The notes below the pieces were generated by a model. That model ran no database searches. It was not told where the DNA came from and saw nothing but the letters and a program-made list of their open reading frames with translations. Of a DNA stretch of 64,000 nucleotides, positions 4,983 to 14,486 are shown in pieces; within the stretch, counting starts at the first letter, position 1; each line of letters opens with the position of its first letter. A program made the translations under genes and the position numbers. Origin of the DNA: an uncultured Planctomycetaceae bacterium (GTDB taxonomy: Bacteria; Planctomycetota; Planctomycetia; Isosphaerales; Isosphaeraceae); contig CAWIAD010000002.1 of NCBI GenBank assembly GCA_963833985.1, forward strand, positions 5,984,001 through 6,048,000, in the 5' to 3' direction.

Positions 4983-6557
4983 TCAAGGAAAGTCTTCCCG
5001 GAGGAGACGGCTGGCGCGCACCAGGTTCGCCAGCTTGGCAGAGGCAGTCTCGAACGCGGTGATGGGGCTGTCGGCGAAGGTGGCGAAGCCGCAGTCGGGA
5101 TTCAGCAGCACTCGGTCGCGGCCGAACAGGGCGATCGCACGCCGGGCGCGGAAGACGATCTCCTCGACCGGTTCCACCCGGCCGGACTTCTGGTCGACCA
5201 CGCCCACGCCGATGCGGACGCTCTCGGGCAAGCCCTTGAGCACATCGATCTCGCCGGCCCTGGAAGTGCACAGCTCGAGGAAAAGCGTCCCCACGGGAAG
5301 CGAACGGAAGAGCGGGACCAGTGGCGCGTAATCGCCGGAAAGCGCGGCGGACACATCGCGCGTCCAGTTGCCGCGGCAAACGTGCATCGCCAGCCTTTCG
5401 ATGGGGAATGGCTCCAGCGTGCTGACCAGGAGCGATCGTGCAAAATCGAGCTCCTCGGCGATGGGCCTTTTCTCCCCGAGGGCGCCGCACATGAACGAGC
5501 GATTGCCGCCCGCAGGGCGTCCGTGGACCACCTCGGTCAAGACTGGCTCGTCAAGCTGTACGAGCGCGGCACCGGCCTCCAGGAGCGCGGCGATCTCCGC
5601 CCGCAACACCTCGACCACGTCGGCGGCAAGTGCCTCGCGGCTGCTATAGGCACGGTCGGCAACGCATTCCAGCCACATGGTCCGGGTCAGCAGGTAAGGG
5701 CCCGGCAGCGCAATCTTGACCGGCCGGTCCGTCAGCTTCCGCACCGCGATCAGCTCATGCACGGCCAGCGGCCGCGCCGGGTTGCGCGCCAGCCTGCCGA
5801 AGACGGCGGGATGGCGTACCGACTGGGCCGGGACGTCGAGCGCCTGGAGCTCGCGGGCGAAAGCCTCCGGATGTTCCACGTAAGGCAGCAGGTCGACGAT
5901 CGGGATGAGCTGGCAGTTCTCCAGGCGGCTGGCCACGAAGCTGGCGTAGCTGTCGCGATGCTGCTCGCCGTCGGTGACGACATCGACGCCCGCCTCGAGC
6001 TGTGCCTGGACGACCTGGGCGACGGCACGGTCGGCGAGCGCGGAGTATTCCGGCTCCGAGACGCGGCCTTCGAGCCTGCCGTGCAGGGCCTCCAGCAGCC
6101 AGGGGGGCCGGGGCCAGCTTCCAAGGCCCATGACAGCAAGGGCGGCGATCGCCGGCTGGCGATCGTCCGGGGACGTCAAGCGGCCCGACGCCGGATCGGC
6201 CGTCGCAAGTGGCCGGGCTGAGGAGGCATGGCTGGAGGCAACCCGCGGCTCCCTGGCGGTGGGTCCGGTTCCTTGCCTGGCGATCAGGAACGTCCATGCG
6301 GCCGCGTCCCGGTCATGCCGCAAGGAGACGAGCACATTGCCGGTGAGCCGGCACCAGGCCGGCAAGTCCTCGCTCACGGAGGGCTCGGTGGAGCGAATTT
6401 CGAGGATCTCTCCCGGTTGCAGCGGGTCGATGTGGCGCCTGATCTGGAGCAAGAGACCGCTGCCACAGTCGAGGTTGCCGCCATCAAACCGCGCCGCGGG
6501 CTCGGGGCCCGGCTGTTCACCTGGTGTGCGTCTCGGATCAATCATGATGGTCGCCAT
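4983..6557 (-). CDS. TusA/SirA-like sulfur-carrier domain fused to a cobalamin-independent methionine synthase (MetE C-terminal/YxjG-like) Zn domain
   Basis: N-terminus FDGGNLDCGSGLLL...EDLPAWCRLTG; C-terminus GSWPRP, DVVTDGEQ, VQLDEP, Zn ligands HVCRGN, LFLE, NPDCGF. Confidence 0.85.
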   Translation of the reverse strand: MATIMIDPRRTPGEQPGPEPAARFDGGNLDCGSGLLLQIRRHIDPLQPGEILEIRSTEPSVSEDLPAWCRLTGNVLVSLRHDRDAAAWTFLIARQGTGPTAREPRVASSHASSARPLATADPASGRLTSPDDRQPAIAALAVMGLGSWPRPPWLLEALHGRLEGRVSEPEYSALADRAVAQVVQAQLEAGVDVVTDGEQHRDSYASFVASRLENCQLIPIVDLLPYVEHPEAFARELQALDVPAQSVRHPAVFGRLARNPARPLAVHELIAVRKLTDRPVKIALPGPYLLTRTMWLECVADRAYSSREALAADVVEVLRAEIAALLEAGAALVQLDEPVLTEVVHGRPAGGNRSFMCGALGEKRPIAEELDFARSLLVSTLEPFPIERLAMHVCRGNWTRDVSAALSGDYAPLVPLFRSLPVGTLFLELCTSRAGEIDVLKGLPESVRIGVGVVDQKSGRVEPVEEIVFRARRAIALFGRDRVLLNPDCGFATFADSPITAFETASAKLANLVRASRLLREDFP

Positions 6558-6573
6558 CGCCGCCAGGATCGTG

Positions 6574-6935
6574 TCAGTAGCTCACGCAGGGCGCCCCTGC
6601 GCCAGGAACTCGACCAGCCGGGCACCACCGACGATCGTCGCGCCGGGGATGAGCGTGCCTGGGTCCAGGCCGCGCTTCTTGAAGCAGGGGGAGCAGACGA
6701 GGATGGTGCCACCGGCCGCGATAAAGCTGGTCATGAGCTCCCTGAGCGGCTGGAAGCCTGGCTCGTGGATGGCATCGGCCGTGCCTTCGACGGCCAGACG
6801 GACGCCCTGGATACTCAGGAAGACCATGGTCTCTTGCCCGGAGGCCACGGCGGCGCCTGCCACCACGAAGGCCACCGTGGCGCGGTCGGGATCGTCCAGC
6901 GAGCGGGTCAGCGAGACGCAAAACGTTCCGGCCAT
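6574..6935 (-). CDS. DsrE/DsrF-like family protein with CSPC motif (probable 1-bp deletion near the 3' end)
   Basis: DDPDRATVAFVVAGAAVASG..VFLSIQGV, LVCSPCFKKRGL, IVGGARLVEFL; as written it stops at 6582, one extra G at about 6593 restores ...QGAPCVSY* ending at 6574; AAGGA RBS. Confidence 0.8.
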
Positions 6936-6942
6936 GGCGAGT

Positions 6943-7179
6943 TCAGTCCTTTCTGCGCTGAAGGTCGTAACGGGGGTGGTCCGAGTGCAGCAAGCGGTGT
7001 CCGGTAAGCCGGCACCAGGCGGGGACATCGACCGGGGCACCCTCATCGCTTGTGATCAGGCGGAAGACCTGCCCGGAGTTCAGCCGCTCCAGACGGCTCT
7101 TGAGCGCCAGGAGCATCGGCCCGCATGCCAGGTCGCCCGCGTCCCAGGTTTCAGCAGCCTCCGGCATCTCCAAATTCAC
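6943..7179 (-). CDS. TusA/SirA family sulfur carrier
   Basis: WDAGDLACGPML...SDEGAPVDVPAWCRLTGH, 78 aa. Confidence 0.8.
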   Translation of the reverse strand: MNLEMPEAAETWDAGDLACGPMLLALKSRLERLNSGQVFRLITSDEGAPVDVPAWCRLTGHRLLHSDHPRYDLQRRKD

Positions 7180-7282
7180 TCCGCCGCGCCTCTGGTGATC
7201 TTCTTGACTTGCTCTGCACTGGAATAATGAAGCAAATTCCCCGGCAAGTCACGGACTAATTTCTTGCAAGGCGGAGGGTCCG

Positions 7283-7762
7283 ATGGATGGCGAATCGCTG
7301 CGGCGACATCTTCGGGAGCTGCTGGAAGGCGGCAACGCGCACCTGGATTTCGAGGCGGCCATTGCCGATTTGCCGCCCGCACAACGCGGCCTCCGGCCTC
7401 CGGGGCTGTCCCATACAGCCTGGCGGCTGCTCGAGCACATGCGCATTGCCCAGTGGGACATTCTGCGGTTCTCGATCGACCCGAGCCATGAGTCGCCCGA
7501 CTTTCCCCTGGGCTACTGGCCCGACGGTGACGCCCCGCCGGATGACACCGCCTGGGATCGGACGGTGCAAGCATTCCGCGCGGATCTGAAAACCATGGTA
7601 GCACTGGTGGAAGACCCCACGACCGACCTCTTCGCTCCGATTCCCCACGGCCAGGGGCAAACGATCCTCCGTGAGGCGCTCCTGGTGGCGGACCATAATG
7701 CCTATCACCTGGGCCAGCTCGTGACGGTCCGCAAGTTGCTACGCGCCTGGCCACATGACTGA
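7283..7762 (+). CDS. DinB/YfiT-like family protein
   Basis: [15 protein letters not shown] and [10 protein letters not shown] histidine motifs. Confidence 0.8.
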
Positions 7763-8015: not shown

Positions 8016-11000
8016 ATGGTACGAACGCTCATTTCCTGGAGCTTGCACAACCGGTTCGTTGTCCTGCTGGGGACGATTGCGTTGGTGGCGTTCGGCCTGC
8101 ATGCCGCTTACAACCTGAACATCGAGGCATATCCCGACCCGACGCCGCCCCTGGTAGAGGTGATCACGCAGAACCCTGGCACCAGCCCCGAGGAGATGGA
8201 GCGGCTGATCGGCATCCCGATCGAGACGGCCCTCAACGGGATGCCGGGGCTGAAATACCTACGGAGTATTTCGCTCGCGGGGCTCAACGATGTCAAATGC
8301 ATCTTTGAGTACGGGACGGATTACTGGCAGGCACGGCAGGAGGTGATCAATCGCATCGGCATGGTGAGCACCCTGCCCCAGGGAGTCACGCCGACACTCT
8401 CGCCCTGGAGCCCCACCGGTGAGATCGTGCGTTACGTCCTGGAAGGTGACGGCTACACGCTGAACCAGCTCAAGGCGGTGCAGGACTGGGTGCTGGAGCG
8501 GCAGCTCCGCACCGTACCGGGGGTGATCGACGTCACCGGGTTCGGCGGCACGGTCAAGCAGTACCAGGTGCTGCTGGATACCCAGCTCATGAAGCGGTAC
8601 GACGTGACCTTGCAGATGGTCACCGACGCGATCACGCAATCCAACGCAAACGTGGGCGGCGACGTGCTTCCCCTGGGTGACCAGTCGCACAACGTCCGGG
8701 CGATCGGCTACCTGGGTGAAGGCATCGACTCGCTCGAACCCGGCAATGCCGGACGCGCATATGCGCTGGAGGTGGAGAAGCTCGAGGACATCCAGGACGT
8801 CGTGGTCACCACCTACCGGAACATGCCGGTCTACATCAAGCAAATTGCCCGCGTGGTGATCGGCTACCAGCCCCGGCTGGGCGTCGTGGGGCGCAACGAC
8901 CAGAACGATGTCGTGGAAGGCATCGTGCTGATGCGCAAGTACGAGAAATCGCTCCCCACATCCAACGCTGTCCAGAAGAAGATCGACGAGCTGAATGCCG
9001 GCGGTCTCTTGCCCAAGGGCATGAAGATCGAGCCGTTCAACCGGCGCACCGACCTGGTCTACGTCACCCGGCACAACGTGCTGCACAACATGCTGGTGGG
9101 AATGGGGCTGGTGATCCTCATCCTGTTCATCTTCCTGGGCGATATCACCAGCGCGGGGATCGTGGCGCTGATGATCCCGCTGGCCATCCTGTTCTCGGTC
9201 TCGGTGCTCTACCTCCAGGGGAAGTCCGCCAACCTGCTGTCCATCGGGGCGATCGACTTTGGAATCATCGTGGACAGCTCTGTGATCATCGTCGAGAACA
9301 TCTACCGGCACATCACCGCGCCCGACGCCGACCGCACGCGCCCCCTGGTCGACCGCATCATCGAAGCCTCGTACGAGATCGAGCGGGCCCTCTTCTTCTC
9401 GACGCTGATCATCGTCTGCGCCTTCATTCCGCTCTTCTCCATGACCGGTCCGGAAGGGGCGCTCTTTGGACCGATGGCGAACACTTACGCCTTTGCCATC
9501 TGCGGCGCGCTCATCCTGGCCGTGACGCTCACGCCGGTCCTCTGCTCCTTCCTCTTCGCCAACAAGAGCGAAGAGAAAGAAACGTTCATTGACCGGATCA
9601 TGAAGCTGCGGTACCTCGTGATGCTCGACAAGATCCTCCGGCACCGCTACCTGCTGCTGGCCAGCATGGGGTCGCTGCTGGCGTTCACAATCTGGTTGAT
9701 CCCCGGGCTGGGCGGCGAGTTCATGCCCCCGCTCGAGGAGGGGAACCTGTGGATCCGCGCGCTCCTGCCGCGCACCGTCACGCTTCAGGAGGCCGCGCGG
9801 ATGGCGCCCCGGCTCCGCGCCGTGATCGGCTCGATTCCCGAGATCAGGGCCGTGATGTCGCACGTCGGCCGGCCCGACGACGGCACCGACGTGACCAGTT
9901 ATTACAACCTGGAATTCAACGCCCCGCTCATTCCCATGGAGGAGTGGCGCAGGAAGCCGGTCAAGATCTTCGGCAAGGAGATCTGGCAGCGGACCATCAC
10001 GCGTGAGGAGATCCAGAATGAACTGATGAAAAAGTTTGAGATCTTCCCAGGCATCAATTTCAATTTCTCGCAGCTCATCCGCGACAACGTGGAGGAGGCG
10101 CTCTCCGGAGTCAAGGGAGCCAACTCGATCAAGCTCTTCGGCAACGACCTGAAGAAGCTGGAGGAAGCCGGACAGCGCGTGATCAATATCCTCAACACGG
10201 TTCCGGGTATCTCCAACGCCGGTCTCTTTCACATCATCGGTCAGCCCAACCTGGAGATCCAGATTGACCGCCATGAGTGCGCACGGTACGGCATCAACGT
10301 GTCGGACGTGGAGGCGGTGGTCCAGGTGGCGGTCGGCGGCAGGGCCTTCACGCAGATGATCGAGGGTGAGAAACGGTTCGACATTGTGCTCCGCTTGCCG
10401 AAACATCAGCGTGACGACCCGGAAGTCATCGAACGGATCACGGTGGACACTCCCGGCCAGGACGGCAAGCCGGGGGCGCGAGTACCGCTCCAGCAAGTGG
10501 CCAAGATTGACCCGCACAAGCCGGGAGCGGCGTACATCTATCGCGAGAACAACCGGCGCTACATTCCGATCAAGTTCAGCGTCCAGGGGCGTGACCTGGC
10601 CTCGACGATTGCCGAGGCCAGAAGGAAGGTGATGGACCCGGTGCACGGGGCCAAGCTGCCCGAGGGATACGACATCGACTGGTCGGGCGAGTTCCAGCAG
10701 ATGGAGGAGGCCAATGCGCGGTTGCTCTGGATCGTGCCGATCTCGATCGTGCTGATCATGGTGCTTCTGTACACGGCCTTCTCCTCGATCAAGGATTCGA
10801 TCCTGGTGATGGTCAATGTGCTGGAGGCGTCGATGGGGGGAATCCTGGCACTCTGGATCACGGGCACACCGTTTTCCATCTCGGCGGCTGTGGGGTTCGT
10901 GTCGGTCTTCGGCGTGGCCGTTCAGGATGGAGTGCTCTTGATCTCTTACTTCAACCAGTTGCGCGAAGCGGGCCTGCCGGTGCGCGAGTCGGTCATGCGG

Positions 11001-11366
11001 GGCGCCGAGCTGCGCGTCCGGCCGGTCGTCATGACCTCGCTGACGGCGGCCCTGGGCCTGTTTCCGGCCGCGATCGCCACGTCGATTGGCTCCCAGGCGC
11101 AGAGACCGCTGGGCATTGTGGTCGTGGGCGCGATGCTCTGCACGCTCTTCCTGACCCGTTACCTGATGCCCGTGCTCTACAGCTTCTTCCCGGCCCCCGC
11201 CGGCCATGGCGAGTGCAAGGCCGAGCTGATCCTCGGTTCGCATTACACCGACCGGTTCCTGCATCCCCAGCACTCTTCCGCTCATCCGGCCCATCCCTGG
11301 ACGGCCGGCGAAACGCCCGACCCCACCACTCCGGACAACGCCGACACGGGAGGACCCGGGACATGA
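8016..11366 (+). CDS. CusA/CzcA family heavy-metal RND efflux transporter
   Basis: 1116 aa; AIDFGIIVDSSVIIVEN, EFMPPLEEG, RVRPVVMT; His-rich C-terminal tail. Confidence 0.93.
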   Translation: MVRTLISWSLHNRFVVLLGTIALVAFGLHAAYNLNIEAYPDPTPPLVEVITQNPGTSPEEMERLIGIPIETALNGMPGLKYLRSISLAGLNDVKCIFEYGTDYWQARQEVINRIGMVSTLPQGVTPTLSPWSPTGEIVRYVLEGDGYTLNQLKAVQDWVLERQLRTVPGVIDVTGFGGTVKQYQVLLDTQLMKRYDVTLQMVTDAITQSNANVGGDVLPLGDQSHNVRAIGYLGEGIDSLEPGNAGRAYALEVEKLEDIQDVVVTTYRNMPVYIKQIARVVIGYQPRLGVVGRNDQNDVVEGIVLMRKYEKSLPTSNAVQKKIDELNAGGLLPKGMKIEPFNRRTDLVYVTRHNVLHNMLVGMGLVILILFIFLGDITSAGIVALMIPLAILFSVSVLYLQGKSANLLSIGAIDFGIIVDSSVIIVENIYRHITAPDADRTRPLVDRIIEASYEIERALFFSTLIIVCAFIPLFSMTGPEGALFGPMANTYAFAICGALILAVTLTPVLCSFLFANKSEEKETFIDRIMKLRYLVMLDKILRHRYLLLASMGSLLAFTIWLIPGLGGEFMPPLEEGNLWIRALLPRTVTLQEAARMAPRLRAVIGSIPEIRAVMSHVGRPDDGTDVTSYYNLEFNAPLIPMEEWRRKPVKIFGKEIWQRTITREEIQNELMKKFEIFPGINFNFSQLIRDNVEEALSGVKGANSIKLFGNDLKKLEEAGQRVINILNTVPGISNAGLFHIIGQPNLEIQIDRHECARYGINVSDVEAVVQVAVGGRAFTQMIEGEKRFDIVLRLPKHQRDDPEVIERITVDTPGQDGKPGARVPLQQVAKIDPHKPGAAYIYRENNRRYIPIKFSVQGRDLASTIAEARRKVMDPVHGAKLPEGYDIDWSGEFQQMEEANARLLWIVPISIVLIMVLLYTAFSSIKDSILVMVNVLEASMGGILALWITGTPFSISAAVGFVSVFGVAVQDGVLLISYFNQLREAGLPVRESVMRGAELRVRPVVMTSLTAALGLFPAAIATSIGSQAQRPLGIVVVGAMLCTLFLTRYLMPVLYSFFPAPAGHGECKAELILGSHYTDRFLHPQHSSAHPAHPWTAGETPDPTTPDNADTGGPGT

Positions 11367-12714
11367 AGATCTCCTGGAAGCTCATGCTCTTTCTTGCCGT
11401 GCTGGCCGGGATCGGCACCTGGCTGACCCTCGACGAGCGGACGCGCGCCCGCGTCGAGCGGGTCTGGCATAGGCTTGCCGTTTCCACTGTTCAGGCCGGC
11501 GAGCCTCAGACCAGCAAGCTCTGGACTCCGGATGCCTCGCCGGCTGCGCGCTGGAATCACAGGCTCAGCTTGACTCCCGAGCAAGTGCAGGGAATTGGAC
11601 TGAAGACTGCCATTGTGGAGAAGCAGACTCTCCCCATGCTCTTGCGGCTGAGCGGAACGACCGACTACGACCCCGCCAAGCTGACGGTCGTGCGCGCCCA
11701 GTTCGACAGCCGGGTGGAGGAGGTCCTTGTCGACCTGGGATCGGTCGTCAAGGTTGGCGACCCGCTGCTGGAGCTCTTCAGCACCGACCTGGCCGTGGCC
11801 AAGAACGACTACGAAACGGCCATCAGCCAGCACGCCCGCGACAAGAAGGTGCTCGAGAACAAGTCGCCGCTGGCCGAGACCAACGCGATTCCGCGCAAGG
11901 ACCTGATCGAGGCTCAGAACGACGAGGCCAAGAGCAACCTGCAAATGAAGCTCGCTCGTGACAAGCTCCTGGTCTTTGGCCTGACCGAGGCGGAGATCAA
12001 CGCGGTTCCCAAGGAAGACGGAGTGAAGAAGGCCAAGATGTTCCTCCGCGCCGGGCGCCGGGAATCGTCATCAAACGGACGGCCGTCCGCGGCAACTACT
12101 ATGACTCCAAGGATGAGCTGATGCAAATAGCGCCGCTGGAACGGCTCTGGGTCCGCGGTACCGTCAGCGAGCTTGACGCCGATAAGGTCAAGGAAGGGCA
12201 GAAGCTGAAAGTCGTCTTCCCTTACTCCGGTCGGACCATCGACGGCCAGGTCGAGTACGTGGACAAGGCGATTGACATGGACACACGCGCGGCCAAGTTC
12301 CGCGCCTCGATTCCCAATCCCGACGGCAAGCTCAAGGCGGCGATGTTCGTGCGCGTCCTGCTCGAAGTGCCACCTGAGCAAGGTCAGACGGTGATCCCGC
12401 GCGGCGCGATGGTCTCGGTCGACCGCGTCGATTATGTCTACGTCAAGGAGGCCGGCCCCGACAACAAGTTTGATCGCCGGCCCATTCTCGTCGCCAAGGA
12501 AAACAACGATTTCGTCCTTGTCGCTCCCCCCGCGCCAGGTATCAGAGAGCTGAAACCGGGCGAGGAGGTGGTCGCCACCGGCAGCCTCATCCTCGAGCAG
12601 ATGTACGAGGACCGGGTCATGCTGGAGGGCGAATTCCTCTCCACCCAGCCGGAACTCGACGAGAAGCTGGACCCGCTCAAGAGCCACAACGTCTCGATCT
12701 CGGTCGAGCACTGA
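11363..12714 (+). CDS. RND periplasmic adaptor (CzcB/CusB-like MFP), frameshift at about 12051
   Basis: ATGA overlap with the RND gene; N-terminal anchor, lipoyl half VDLGSVVKVGDPLLE; ORFs 11213..12121 and 12121..12714 join if one C is added (..LRARAPGIVIKRT..). Confidence 0.88.
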
Positions 12715-12869
12715 TTTCTGCCGGGTGAGCCGACAAGACCCACTTCAGAAACGGCCCCGGATGGCCGATGAAGGACTGTACGGGTTATAGCAATCGCGCC
12801 GATTGCCCGGGCGAGCCGGACGCCGAGGCTGGCCGCAGCTTCCATCAGGCCAGGAAGGCTGTCGATGCA

Positions 12870-14486
12870 ATGATGGATCATGCGTTGCGACACAGTCGGC
12901 TTGCCAGCCTCCTCTTGCTGGGATCCTGGCTGCATGCGTTCGACTGCGATGCGCATGCACAGGGACCCGGAACCTCGCCGACGCCTTCCCAGATCGGGGG
13001 GTCGACTTCCGTCCTGGGAGGCGCACCAGGTGCCGGGGGCGGTAGCTACGGCAACCTACCCGGTGCCGGCGGCTTCTTGAGCAATCGCGCGGGCACGACG
13101 GCACCGAAGGGCATACCCACGGCCGTGGTCAACCCCGCGACGGCACCGTCCCCTACTATGCTACAGTCAGGCATCAGCGCACCGCAGCCCGAGCCTCTGT
13201 CCGGCTCCGCAGCCCCCTTCGTCGGACCGCTCGCGCTCCCCTCAGGCCCCGAGGATGACGGCCCCCCGGGCGGGCTGACGCTTGACCAGGCCATCGAGAT
13301 CACGCTTGAACGTAGCCGGGACCTTCGGGCCAAGTACTACGAGATCCCCCAGGCCAGGGCCGACGTCCTTCAGGCCAGCCTGCGCGCGAATCCCGTATTT
13401 TACCAGGATGGTCAGCTCGTCCCCTATCCGGGCTACCATTTCAACCGGTCAGTCACCGGCGGGCCCACGCAGTACGACACGAACGTGACGTTCCTTCTCG
13501 ACATCGCCCGCCAGCGCCAGGCCCGTACCGCGGTGGCCGAGCGTGCCGAGAAGGTGCTGGAGGCACAGTTCCAGGAGGCCGTCCGGCAGCGGATCGATGA
13601 TGTGTACGATGCCTACGTACTGGGTGCTCTGTCGGCGCGGCAGATCGTCCGCTACTCGCGCGTCAGTGTCCAGGGGACGCGGAGTCTCTTTCTCAAGTAC
13701 CAGGAGCTCTACAAGCGCGGCAGCGCTTCTCTGGGCGATCTGAACCGGATCAAGATCCAGTTCCGCACGGCCCAGCTTGGCCTTGCCGATGCGGAGACGG
13801 CCTACCGCAAGGCCAAGCTCGACCTCGGATCGCTTCTGAATCTGACCCGTGAAGAAGTCGATAAGATGGAGCTGCGCGGCACCATCTACGATACCCAGCC
13901 TGCGCCGCCTGCGGTGGAGGAGCTGCGGAGAATCGCGCTGGAATCGCGGCCCGACATCAACTCCTACCGGCTGGGCGTCGTCCGTGCCGAGGCCGATGTG
14001 CGGCTTGCCCGAGCCAATCGCTATGCGAACCCGTACCTTCTCTTCCAGCCCTACACCTACCAGGATAACGCACCCTACGGCCTCCGCAGTGCGGTCTCGT
14101 ATGCACTGGGAGTGACGGTCCCCTTGCCGATCTTCAACCGCAACCAGGGAGGCATCCAGCGCGCGGTGCTCAACGTCGCGCAAACCCAGATCGAGCTGTC
14201 CGACGTGGAGCGTCAGGCACTGGTGGACGTGGAGAAGGCGGTTCAGGAGTACCAGGTTTCGTTGCGCGAGGTCAACGAGCTCTCGCAGGATGTCATACCG
14301 GCGGCGAAACAGGTCCGCGACGAGGCCTTCCGGTTGCTCAATGCGGGTGAGAAAAGCGTTGTCGAGTTCATCGCCGCCCAGCAGGAGTTCAACCAGATCG
14401 CCAAGCAGTACCTCGACACGGCCATCCGCCATCGCCGCAGCATGGTGAACCTGAACACGGTCACCGGCAAACGAATATTGCCATGA
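12870..14486 (+). CDS. TolC/CzcC family outer membrane factor
   Basis: LTLDQAIEITLE, RPDI, VPLPIFNRNQG, GEKSVVEFI motifs; follows the RND and MFP genes; start uncertain. Confidence 0.88.
   Translation: MMDHALRHSRLASLLLLGSWLHAFDCDAHAQGPGTSPTPSQIGGSTSVLGGAPGAGGGSYGNLPGAGGFLSNRAGTTAPKGIPTAVVNPATAPSPTMLQSGISAPQPEPLSGSAAPFVGPLALPSGPEDDGPPGGLTLDQAIEITLERSRDLRAKYYEIPQARADVLQASLRANPVFYQDGQLVPYPGYHFNRSVTGGPTQYDTNVTFLLDIARQRQARTAVAERAEKVLEAQFQEAVRQRIDDVYDAYVLGALSARQIVRYSRVSVQGTRSLFLKYQELYKRGSASLGDLNRIKIQFRTAQLGLADAETAYRKAKLDLGSLLNLTREEVDKMELRGTIYDTQPAPPAVEELRRIALESRPDINSYRLGVVRAEADVRLARANRYANPYLLFQPYTYQDNAPYGLRSAVSYALGVTVPLPIFNRNQGGIQRAVLNVAQTQIELSDVERQALVDVEKAVQEYQVSLREVNELSQDVIPAAKQVRDEAFRLLNAGEKSVVEFIAAQQEFNQIAKQYLDTAIRHRRSMVNLNTVTGKRILP

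Follow-up and report, generated by a model that had tools for sequence, protein, structure and literature searches.

We examined a 64,000-nucleotide stretch of contig CAWIAD010000002.1 (assembly GCA_963833985.1, positions 5,984,001 to 6,048,000; hereafter the window) from an uncultured bacterium of the Isosphaeraceae, in which three minus-strand genes encode a small TusA-like protein, a DsrE-like protein and a second TusA-like domain fused to a core MetE-type barrel (Table 1). A preceding sequence-only reading had described these genes as tightly packed, and the open reading frames (ORFs) bear this out, with spacings of 7 nt between tusA and dsrE and 24 nt between dsrE and the fusion gene; an alternative ATG start lies four codons into the tusA-like ORF. 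All the motifs quoted in that reading (LACGP, LDCGS, PAWCRLTG twice, CSPC, HVC, PDC and SFMCGAL) are present. An AlphaFold2 model of the fusion, based on a 131-row alignment (mean predicted local distance difference test score, pLDDT, 87; predicted template modeling score, pTM, 0.82), comprises a TusA fold at residues 22-93, a disordered linker and one barrel. This module is real, conserved and uncharacterised, and a literature search conducted mostly without subscription papers found no publication on a TusA/DsrE/MetE-barrel combination.

Table 1. Features of the TusA/DsrE/MetE-barrel module (window coordinates; residues are those of the encoded fusion protein)
Feature	Position	Strand	Details
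tusA-like gene	6943-7179	minus	78 aa, GTG start
dsrE-like gene	6582-6935	minus	117 aa as assembled
TusA::core-MetE fusion gene	4983-6557	minus	524 aa
Fused TusA-like domain	6279-6494	minus	residues 22-93; Cys31 in DCGxG, Cys69
Linker	6183-6263	minus	residues 99-125; unconserved, predicted disordered, pLDDT under 50
MetE catalytic barrel, single	4986-6143	minus	residues 139-524
Cys357 codon TGC	5487-5489	minus	site is an in-frame TGA in the sister clade
One-base gap in dsrE, at G run 6594-6597	6574-6597	minus	

The conservation of the module was investigated in a species-genome collection, from which the best 80 of 196 relatives were kept as loci, spanning Planctomycetota, Pseudomonadota, Actinomycetota, Binatota, Myxococcota and Bdellovibrionota. 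The TusA domain is in frame with the barrel in 77 of the 80 loci, the other three being cut by contig ends, and dsrE lies upstream in 66, most of the misses being short contigs; three loci (L008, L015 and L046) have room for dsrE yet are without it. A free tusA accompanies 53 loci and is absent from the 11 Binatia loci. Cys19 of the free TusA, Cys31 and Cys357 of the fusion, Cys81 and Cys84 of DsrE and the zinc cysteines are invariant across loci, and the neighbourhood check proposed at the outset ties this barrel clade to TusA and DsrE across phyla. Of 221 evenly sampled Planctomycetota genomes, 34 are carriers, and 33 of their regions were fetched. Twelve carriers have the fusion form (57-100% identity), while 22 have a barrel of 41-47% identity, mostly in the order tusA, dsrE, tusA::osmC-like gene and free barrel, which we refer to as the split or sister clade. 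With tusA and dsrE near the barrel in 30/33 regions, and TusA fused either to the barrel or to an OsmC-like domain depending on the clade, TusA remains associated with the barrel in two distinct fusion arrangements. The OsmC-like domain itself has a Cys at its first catalytic position in only 16/35 cases. The spread of the module is patchy: it occurs in 7/13 congeners, 0/11 other genera of the window's family, 7/201 Burkholderiales genomes (one unpublished in that sample) and 2/281 Actinomycetota genomes (ten unpublished in that sample).

The barrel exceeds the Pfam cut-off for Meth_synt_2 (PF01717) and shows the defining features of the core MetE superfamily, namely a single barrel, HxC..E..C zinc ligands (H392 and C394 of HVC, E428, and C489 of PDC) and a homocysteine-binding Ser/Glu/Asp set. 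The latter consists of S147, E198 and D336, which match in alignment the homocysteine-binding residues that PMC7857596 (Price et al. 2021) gives for 3RPD and for MetE (S433, E484 and D599 in E. coli). These seven predicted zinc and homocysteine residues are invariant in the 131 aligned rows, so the earlier statement that all zinc ligands are kept stands; equally, the fusion has no Meth_synt_1 match and the model contains one barrel, as expected from the folate barrel having been called absent.

The most striking feature of the barrel is position 357, an extra cysteine (in SFMCGAL) that had been singled out previously and is now better supported as functional. Cys357 is invariant in the 131 aligned rows, whereas Cys215, Cys298 and Cys430 are clade-limited. 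It sits in a loop (residues 351-360, mean pLDDT 57) that the model suggests is probably mobile, and its place between D336 and the H392/C394 strand would put it on the active-site face. In 5 of the 33 Planctomycetota regions, all from the split clade and falling into two separate, well-supported groups of a quick tree, the aligned codon is TGA; selA is present in 5/5 of these genomes and selD in 3/5, consistent with the machinery for selenocysteine (Sec). When metagenome contigs were scanned by pattern for the TGA form, 120 loci emerged from 37 of the 64 parts of the collection; 117 of these loci are family members with TGA at site 357, in three motif groups. The 116 alignments of this form are free of further internal stops, and wherever they cover the zinc and homocysteine residues, these do not vary. 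The sister clade therefore displays an in-frame UGA aligned with Cys and with homology on both sides. Two database representatives end exactly before the TGA site; gene callers cut the sister-clade protein at the UGA.

This observation is further strengthened by a hairpin downstream of the codon. After removal of near-duplicates, 71 of the 120 TGA sequences were analysed, 67 in two larger groups (ATL/GSL) and four in the GVL group. A hairpin is common to the 67 ATL/GSL sequences, with five pairs in 66-67/67 and a sixth in 47, and its CG(U/G)GAY loop begins 18 nt past the UGA. Third codon positions are frozen inside the stem (ACC in 64, CGC in 65 and GCG in 62 of the 67) and variable in the flanks; two-sided compensatory changes were seen only once. 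The bacterial selenocysteine insertion sequence (bSECIS) has a 3-9 nt loop with an early G and a 4-16 bp stem, 16-37 nt from the UGA (PMC13188914), a model that the 67 ATL/GSL sequences fit and that is not evident in the four GVL sequences. The mean folding z-score against synonymous shuffles was -0.8 for the 71 TGA sequences and 0.02 for 94 Cys sequences. Table 1 of PMC13188914, which lists 119 selenoprotein families as of 2026, has no PF01717/MetE-type or TusA entry, and neither a selenoprotein of MetE type nor a TusA fusion turned up in a word search of the available text of PMC9312934, PMC12013277, PMC13326102 and PMC10861871. From its sequences, the sister clade is thus predicted to be a selenoprotein family missing from the 2026 list, a point on which the BSepDB family table could bear.

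Both TusA-like units retain the fold and the N-terminal active cysteine, as judged by Pfam, the model and an alignment to E. coli TusA. The free protein scores 41.8 bits against the Pfam TusA cut-off of 28.6, the fused domain also exceeds it at 33 bits, and Cys19 aligns on the CPxP cysteine of E. coli TusA (E 0.008). NCBIfam PRK00299 gives the two domains 24-29 bits against a cut-off of 78, and C-G replaces CPxP in all homologues, which generalises what had been noted for the two domains here. Cys19 is kept in 53/53 and Cys56 (PAWC) in 53/54 homologues of the free protein. Fused Cys31 is kept in 78/78, with DCG in 52/52 for the split clade; the second cysteine that the sequence-only reading had described as shared is indeed present in both domains of the window, but its fused copy, Cys69, is not invariant among homologues (63/77, with Ala in 13). 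In many Planctomycetota (20 loci; for example L005:3488-4063, L032:4704-5267 and L078:4694-5269), the free TusA has an extra N-terminal Cys-rich domain (CxxC...CxxC...C), which the window's protein is without; this domain has no Pfam match and is placed by the ESM Atlas among unnamed small metal-binding-like clusters.

The DsrE-like protein matches Pfam DsrE with 49.4 bits, over the cut-off, and its sole PDB match is 3MC3 (E 0.034). The CSPC motif reported previously corresponds to Cys81 and Cys84, both kept in 67/67 homologues. The window's dsrE ends in QGRPA* and, as assembled, is without its last strand, whereas Tyr or Phe is the last residue in 66/66 homologues, and a tail of the GA(A/C/S)xVSY type closes the protein in four congeners. 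A matching VSY-type tail is encoded in the next frame behind the four-G run, with a stop at 6574-6576. The frame comparison suggests that this one-base gap is probably an assembly error caused by a long-read indel, since another MetE-like gene of the assembly is split and three congener assemblies have split fusions; in a single DNA read run, 8% of the words were present and none of the pieces bridges the gap. The dsrE and tusA genes examined contained no Sec codon (TGA), and two apparent CxP-stop matches were rejected as unrelated frames.

Comparison with known systems places the barrel near the described families and apparently outside MesD and MetE. Its best structural match is MesD (3RPD; Z 38.2, rmsd 2.6, 327 aligned, 26% identity); full MetE chains reach Z 29-37 and are tied with 3RPD within about 2 Z units. 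In the NCBIfam scan the fusion passes no cut-off, the best score being 152 bits against 406 for PRK04326; the MesD profile PRK09121 gives 81.7 bits against 392, the MesA-C profiles (PRK00957, PRK04326 and PRK01207) remain far below their cut-offs in what is a comparison by profile score only, and PRK06520 (83 bits against 313) is the sole score related to epoxyalkane:coenzyme M transferase or YxjG/H. Like MesD, which depends on a neighbouring partner gene, the module has a single barrel without a folate domain and the same zinc and homocysteine residues, and it often co-occurs with MetH. It differs in its identity to 3RPD, about 55% being what defines MesD, in its TusA/DsrE/OsmC-like partners and in its additional Cys/Sec loop. 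DUF1852 (MesX), thought to supply the methyl group for MesD, was found neither beside the window copy nor among 80 neighbour proteins scanned, a search that did not extend to whole genomes, and the available part of PMC7857596 makes no mention of TusA or DsrE. The PF01717 fold and zinc site are likewise shared with the MetE C-terminal domain, split MetE and MesA-C; full and split MetE differ by their Meth_synt_1 domain or partner, and MesA-C by their methanogen or Wood-Ljungdahl hosts as described in PMC7857596, the module occurring in aerobic phyla. On these sequence and profile features the barrel appears to resemble a partner-dependent core MetE while failing MesD and MetE membership. Two more single-barrel MetE-like genes in the window's genome (G000:C1:1879846-1880829 and G000:C1:3409663-3410659, the latter in two frames) are also below all NCBIfam cut-offs where scanned.

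The small partners show a parallel mixture of likeness and difference. In sulfur-oxidiser cascades, the TusA cysteine that corresponds to Cys19/Cys31 is the one that binds sulfur, which DsrE3 proteins deliver (PMC11094781); the module keeps the TusA and DsrE folds and the position of the sulfur-binding cysteine, but has C-G rather than CPxP, a CxxC DsrE, and a MetE barrel in place of sHdr/rDsr as partner. YedF also pairs TusA (SirA-like) with a CxxC-type DsrE and tracks selD, but it joins the two in a single protein, which carries CPxP and CGxC, and it has no MetE-like partner (Lin et al. 2015, PMC5322559). The interchange of Cys and Sec at a conserved site with a SECIS-like hairpin is shared with catalogued selenoproteins, which include DsrE-like (UxxC) and OsmC-like (UxxT) families (PMC13188914); the TGA of the module, in contrast, lies in the barrel.

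The selenium genes of the carriers were considered next to these features. The genome to which the window belongs encodes selA, selD (with a TGA) and tRNA-Sec; its metH is complete and it gives no full MetE match, and the window copy itself has no UGA at site 357 despite this machinery. Among 50 carriers hand-picked from the 80 loci for taxon spread, including the unpublished G234, G237, G238, G255 and G261, selD is present in 49 and selA in 39 (44/45 and 34/45 without those five), against a selD background of 71-78% (163/221 Planctomycetota, 156/201 Burkholderiales and 200/281 Actinomycetota). Planctomycetota carriers are enriched for selA (34/34 versus 167/221, nominal p 3e-5) and selD (31/34 versus 163/221, nominal p 0.007), and the two Actinomycetota carriers have selD. 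In the window's family, selD occurs in 22/24 genomes, carrier or not.

Taken together, we tentatively favour, without regarding it as established, the reading that the three genes form one accessory pathway in which Cys/Sec357 would link the carriers to zinc-activated homocysteine by relaying a group centred on sulfur or selenium. In MetE barrels, zinc serves to activate homocysteine (PMC7857596); here the barrel would bind homocysteine on zinc as the thiolate, which is probably the nucleophile given the intact homocysteine/zinc site, and Cys357 (a Sec codon in the sister clade) would be the covalent relay between the TusA/DsrE cysteines and that thiolate. The group could pass from DsrE to TusA, Cys/Sec357 and homocysteine, or in reverse, with the DsrE CxxC loading or reducing the chain and the flexible linker letting the tethered TusA reach Cys357. 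The cargo could be bare S/Se (a persulfide or perselenide) or CH3-S/CH3-Se, in either direction, so that the sulfur relay proposed earlier may carry selenium or both. A thiolate readily attacks the chalcogen of a persulfide or mixed disulfide, which is why such a relay is ranked above delivery of a methyl group. Where a residue alternates between Cys and Sec with a hairpin dedicated to it, it usually serves as catalytic nucleophile or redox centre (PMC13188914). Modelling the barrel in complex with the fused TusA domain and zinc yielded a score of 0.01, with the mark at 0.32, which speaks neither for nor against the relay.

Several observations weigh against this reading. The fused clade, to which the window belongs, has TGA at 357 in 0/100 tree rows and its GAL motif in 0/117 metagenome TGA matches, so the role of selenium in the sister clade may be limited to providing a better nucleophile, without selenium being the cargo. 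Folding is not in excess in the four THTFM-TGA-GVLA sequences (mean z +0.14), CPxP is missing from both TusA domains, and two full-length representatives of 50% clusters (P0131 and P0136) are without the cysteine. Co-occurrence counts come from kin that are not independent, so that the p values overstate; Burkholderiales show no selD enrichment (carriers 5/7 versus 156/201), and selA is missing in 11/50 carriers. Neither selD nor selA lies within flanks of about 5-6 kb in any of 113 loci, and sel genes adjoin the module in only 2/6 Burkholderiales regions and 1/120 metagenome loci (selA and selD). Finally, an intact MetE site is at least equally compatible with methyl transfer. As separate observations, the divergent P0136 has Trp at the Cys/Sec site (SFYWGALS), either a genuine Trp or a UGA decoded as one, and in the two Burkholderiales regions (L131:4293-6713 and L132:6331-8777) selD and, after it, a cystathionine-beta-synthase-like gene form a pair situated 1-2.7 kb away from the module.

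The methyl transfer that this site would accommodate is the basis of a further explanation, that the module is a fifth family of folate-independent core methionine synthase in which the small proteins supply the methyl group and Cys/Sec357 relays it or guards against oxidation. We consider this doubtful, though deserving of serious attention: all seven zinc and homocysteine residues are kept, MesD is the closest structure, and the module is divergent from metY-metX-metW, on the opposite strand, in 10/11 Binatia loci. To our knowledge, however, TusA and DsrE have no role as methyl carriers, and the module is patchy even within the genus (7/13). MetH is found in 53 of 60 carriers (50 over the cut-off and three in pieces), and of five MetH-lacking carriers checked two have a full MetE, so the module is probably not the main methionine synthase; this co-occurrence is nonetheless weak evidence against a core synthase, because MesD genomes also have MetH in 75% of cases (PMC7857596). 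Four near-complete non-carriers of family f28 lack any Meth_synt_2 match, which shows that the module is not that family's required synthase. The boldest version of methyl delivery, a rather unlikely one, is a salvage of methylselenol or methanethiol in which CH3-Se/S would be held on Cys/Sec357, the methyl passed to zinc-bound homocysteine to give methionine, and the leftover Se/S, in the form of a perselenide or persulfide, handed through TusA and DsrE to selenophosphate synthetase.

Rather than feeding methionine synthesis, the cysteines might act, by reduction or binding, on an oxyanion or methylated metalloid (Se, As or Te) taken up by import, with the zinc thiolate as final acceptor. A PhnD/E/C-like ATP-binding cassette (ABC) importer inside or beside the operon in 8/80 loci, the CxxC DsrE, a second DsrE (14 loci), the Cys-rich N-terminal TusA domain and the patchy spread over phyla speak for such detoxification, which we nevertheless judge unlikely, as the importer is missing from most loci, no recurrent efflux pump or ArsR/MerR-type regulator appeared among the neighbours scanned, and the OsmC-like domain so often lacks its first catalytic Cys. 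Single-barrel homologues also include epoxyalkane:coenzyme M transferase-type enzymes, so the barrel might instead alkylate a thiol other than homocysteine while the carriers recycle that thiol. This appears very improbable, although acyl-CoA dehydrogenase-like and binding-protein genes flank some split-clade loci; an epoxyalkane-transferase-type single-barrel enzyme is named in passing in PMC10861871. That the cluster or fusion is an assembly artefact or chance neighbourhood, as the sequence-only reading had allowed for the fusion, can practically be dismissed: apparent frameshifts do occur in this assembly, in dsrE and another MetE-like gene, but full-length fusions dominate the 120 best protein matches and, as described above, recur in 77/80 loci of several phyla, cultured strains included.

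Other neighbours vary with the taxon. In several Burkholderiales, the PhnD/PhnE/PhnC-like importer lies between dsrE and the fusion (L049:535-3184, L053, L054, L051, L058, L068 and L076); it passes TIGR01098 and not the phosphonate or putative selenate models. L017 (L017:1774-4967 and L017:7164-8093) exemplifies the Binatia module facing away from metY-metX-metW, and in seven Binatia loci the module is followed by a molybdopterin-oxidoreductase-domain gene and a NUDIX gene. A methionine-gamma-lyase-like gene neighbours the module once, so that occasional neighbours handle homocysteine (metY-metX-metW, the cystathionine-beta-synthase-like gene with selD, and this gene). Both TusA domains of the window weakly match the start of the Rv1681 radical S-adenosylmethionine model (E 0.005-0.008), and at L104:2548-8076 the genes on either side of a split-clade barrel encode an Rv1680-like binding protein (239 bits against a cut-off of 400) and an Rv1679/FadE16-like dehydrogenase (349 bits against 600); the C-G type of TusA may serve a second enzyme in an Rv1679-Rv1681-like gene cluster.

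Within f28, the near-complete genomes G130, G085, G026, G180, G049 and G169 have no MetH homocysteine-binding domain. These six also have no Meth_synt_2 match except the module in two, and contain only separate pterin- and B12-binding pieces, so their methionine synthase is not accounted for by the profile searches made. The module as the only methionine synthase of this family was rejected, as non-carriers, like the carrier G130, are without the MetH homocysteine domain or MetE.

Around the window copy, a DinB_2/mycothiol-S-transferase-like gene (7283-7762, plus strand) is divergent from tusA; it is not common to the six congeners compared, and DinB is near 1/80 other loci. The 100-base gap between tusA and dinB holds an 8-base inverted repeat, TGACTTGC ... 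GCAAGTCA, at 7204-7251 that is not conserved in congeners, and the DNA upstream of tusA shows no conservation across the six. No sigma-70-like promoter was found at the locus, and the terminator count is at chance level. Further along, at 8016-14486 on the plus strand, the ORF list alone indicates a CzcA/CusA-like resistance-nodulation-division (RND) pump, a membrane-fusion protein, whose gene is apparently split at about 12121, and a TolC-like gene.

MetE-type barrels are, as far as we know, methyl or alkyl transferases with only zinc-bound cysteines. The added invariant Cys/Sec and the dedicated TusA/DsrE partners point to a chemistry not yet assigned to the MetE fold, and among its members the form in the window, being all-cysteine and self-contained, lends itself most readily to expression and assay. 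Were the salvage of methylselenol or methanethiol true, the module would be a folate- and B12-free methionine synthase and a new selenoenzyme family, and it would be a candidate for the in-vivo selenium donor of SelD, which is not settled (PMC13188914).

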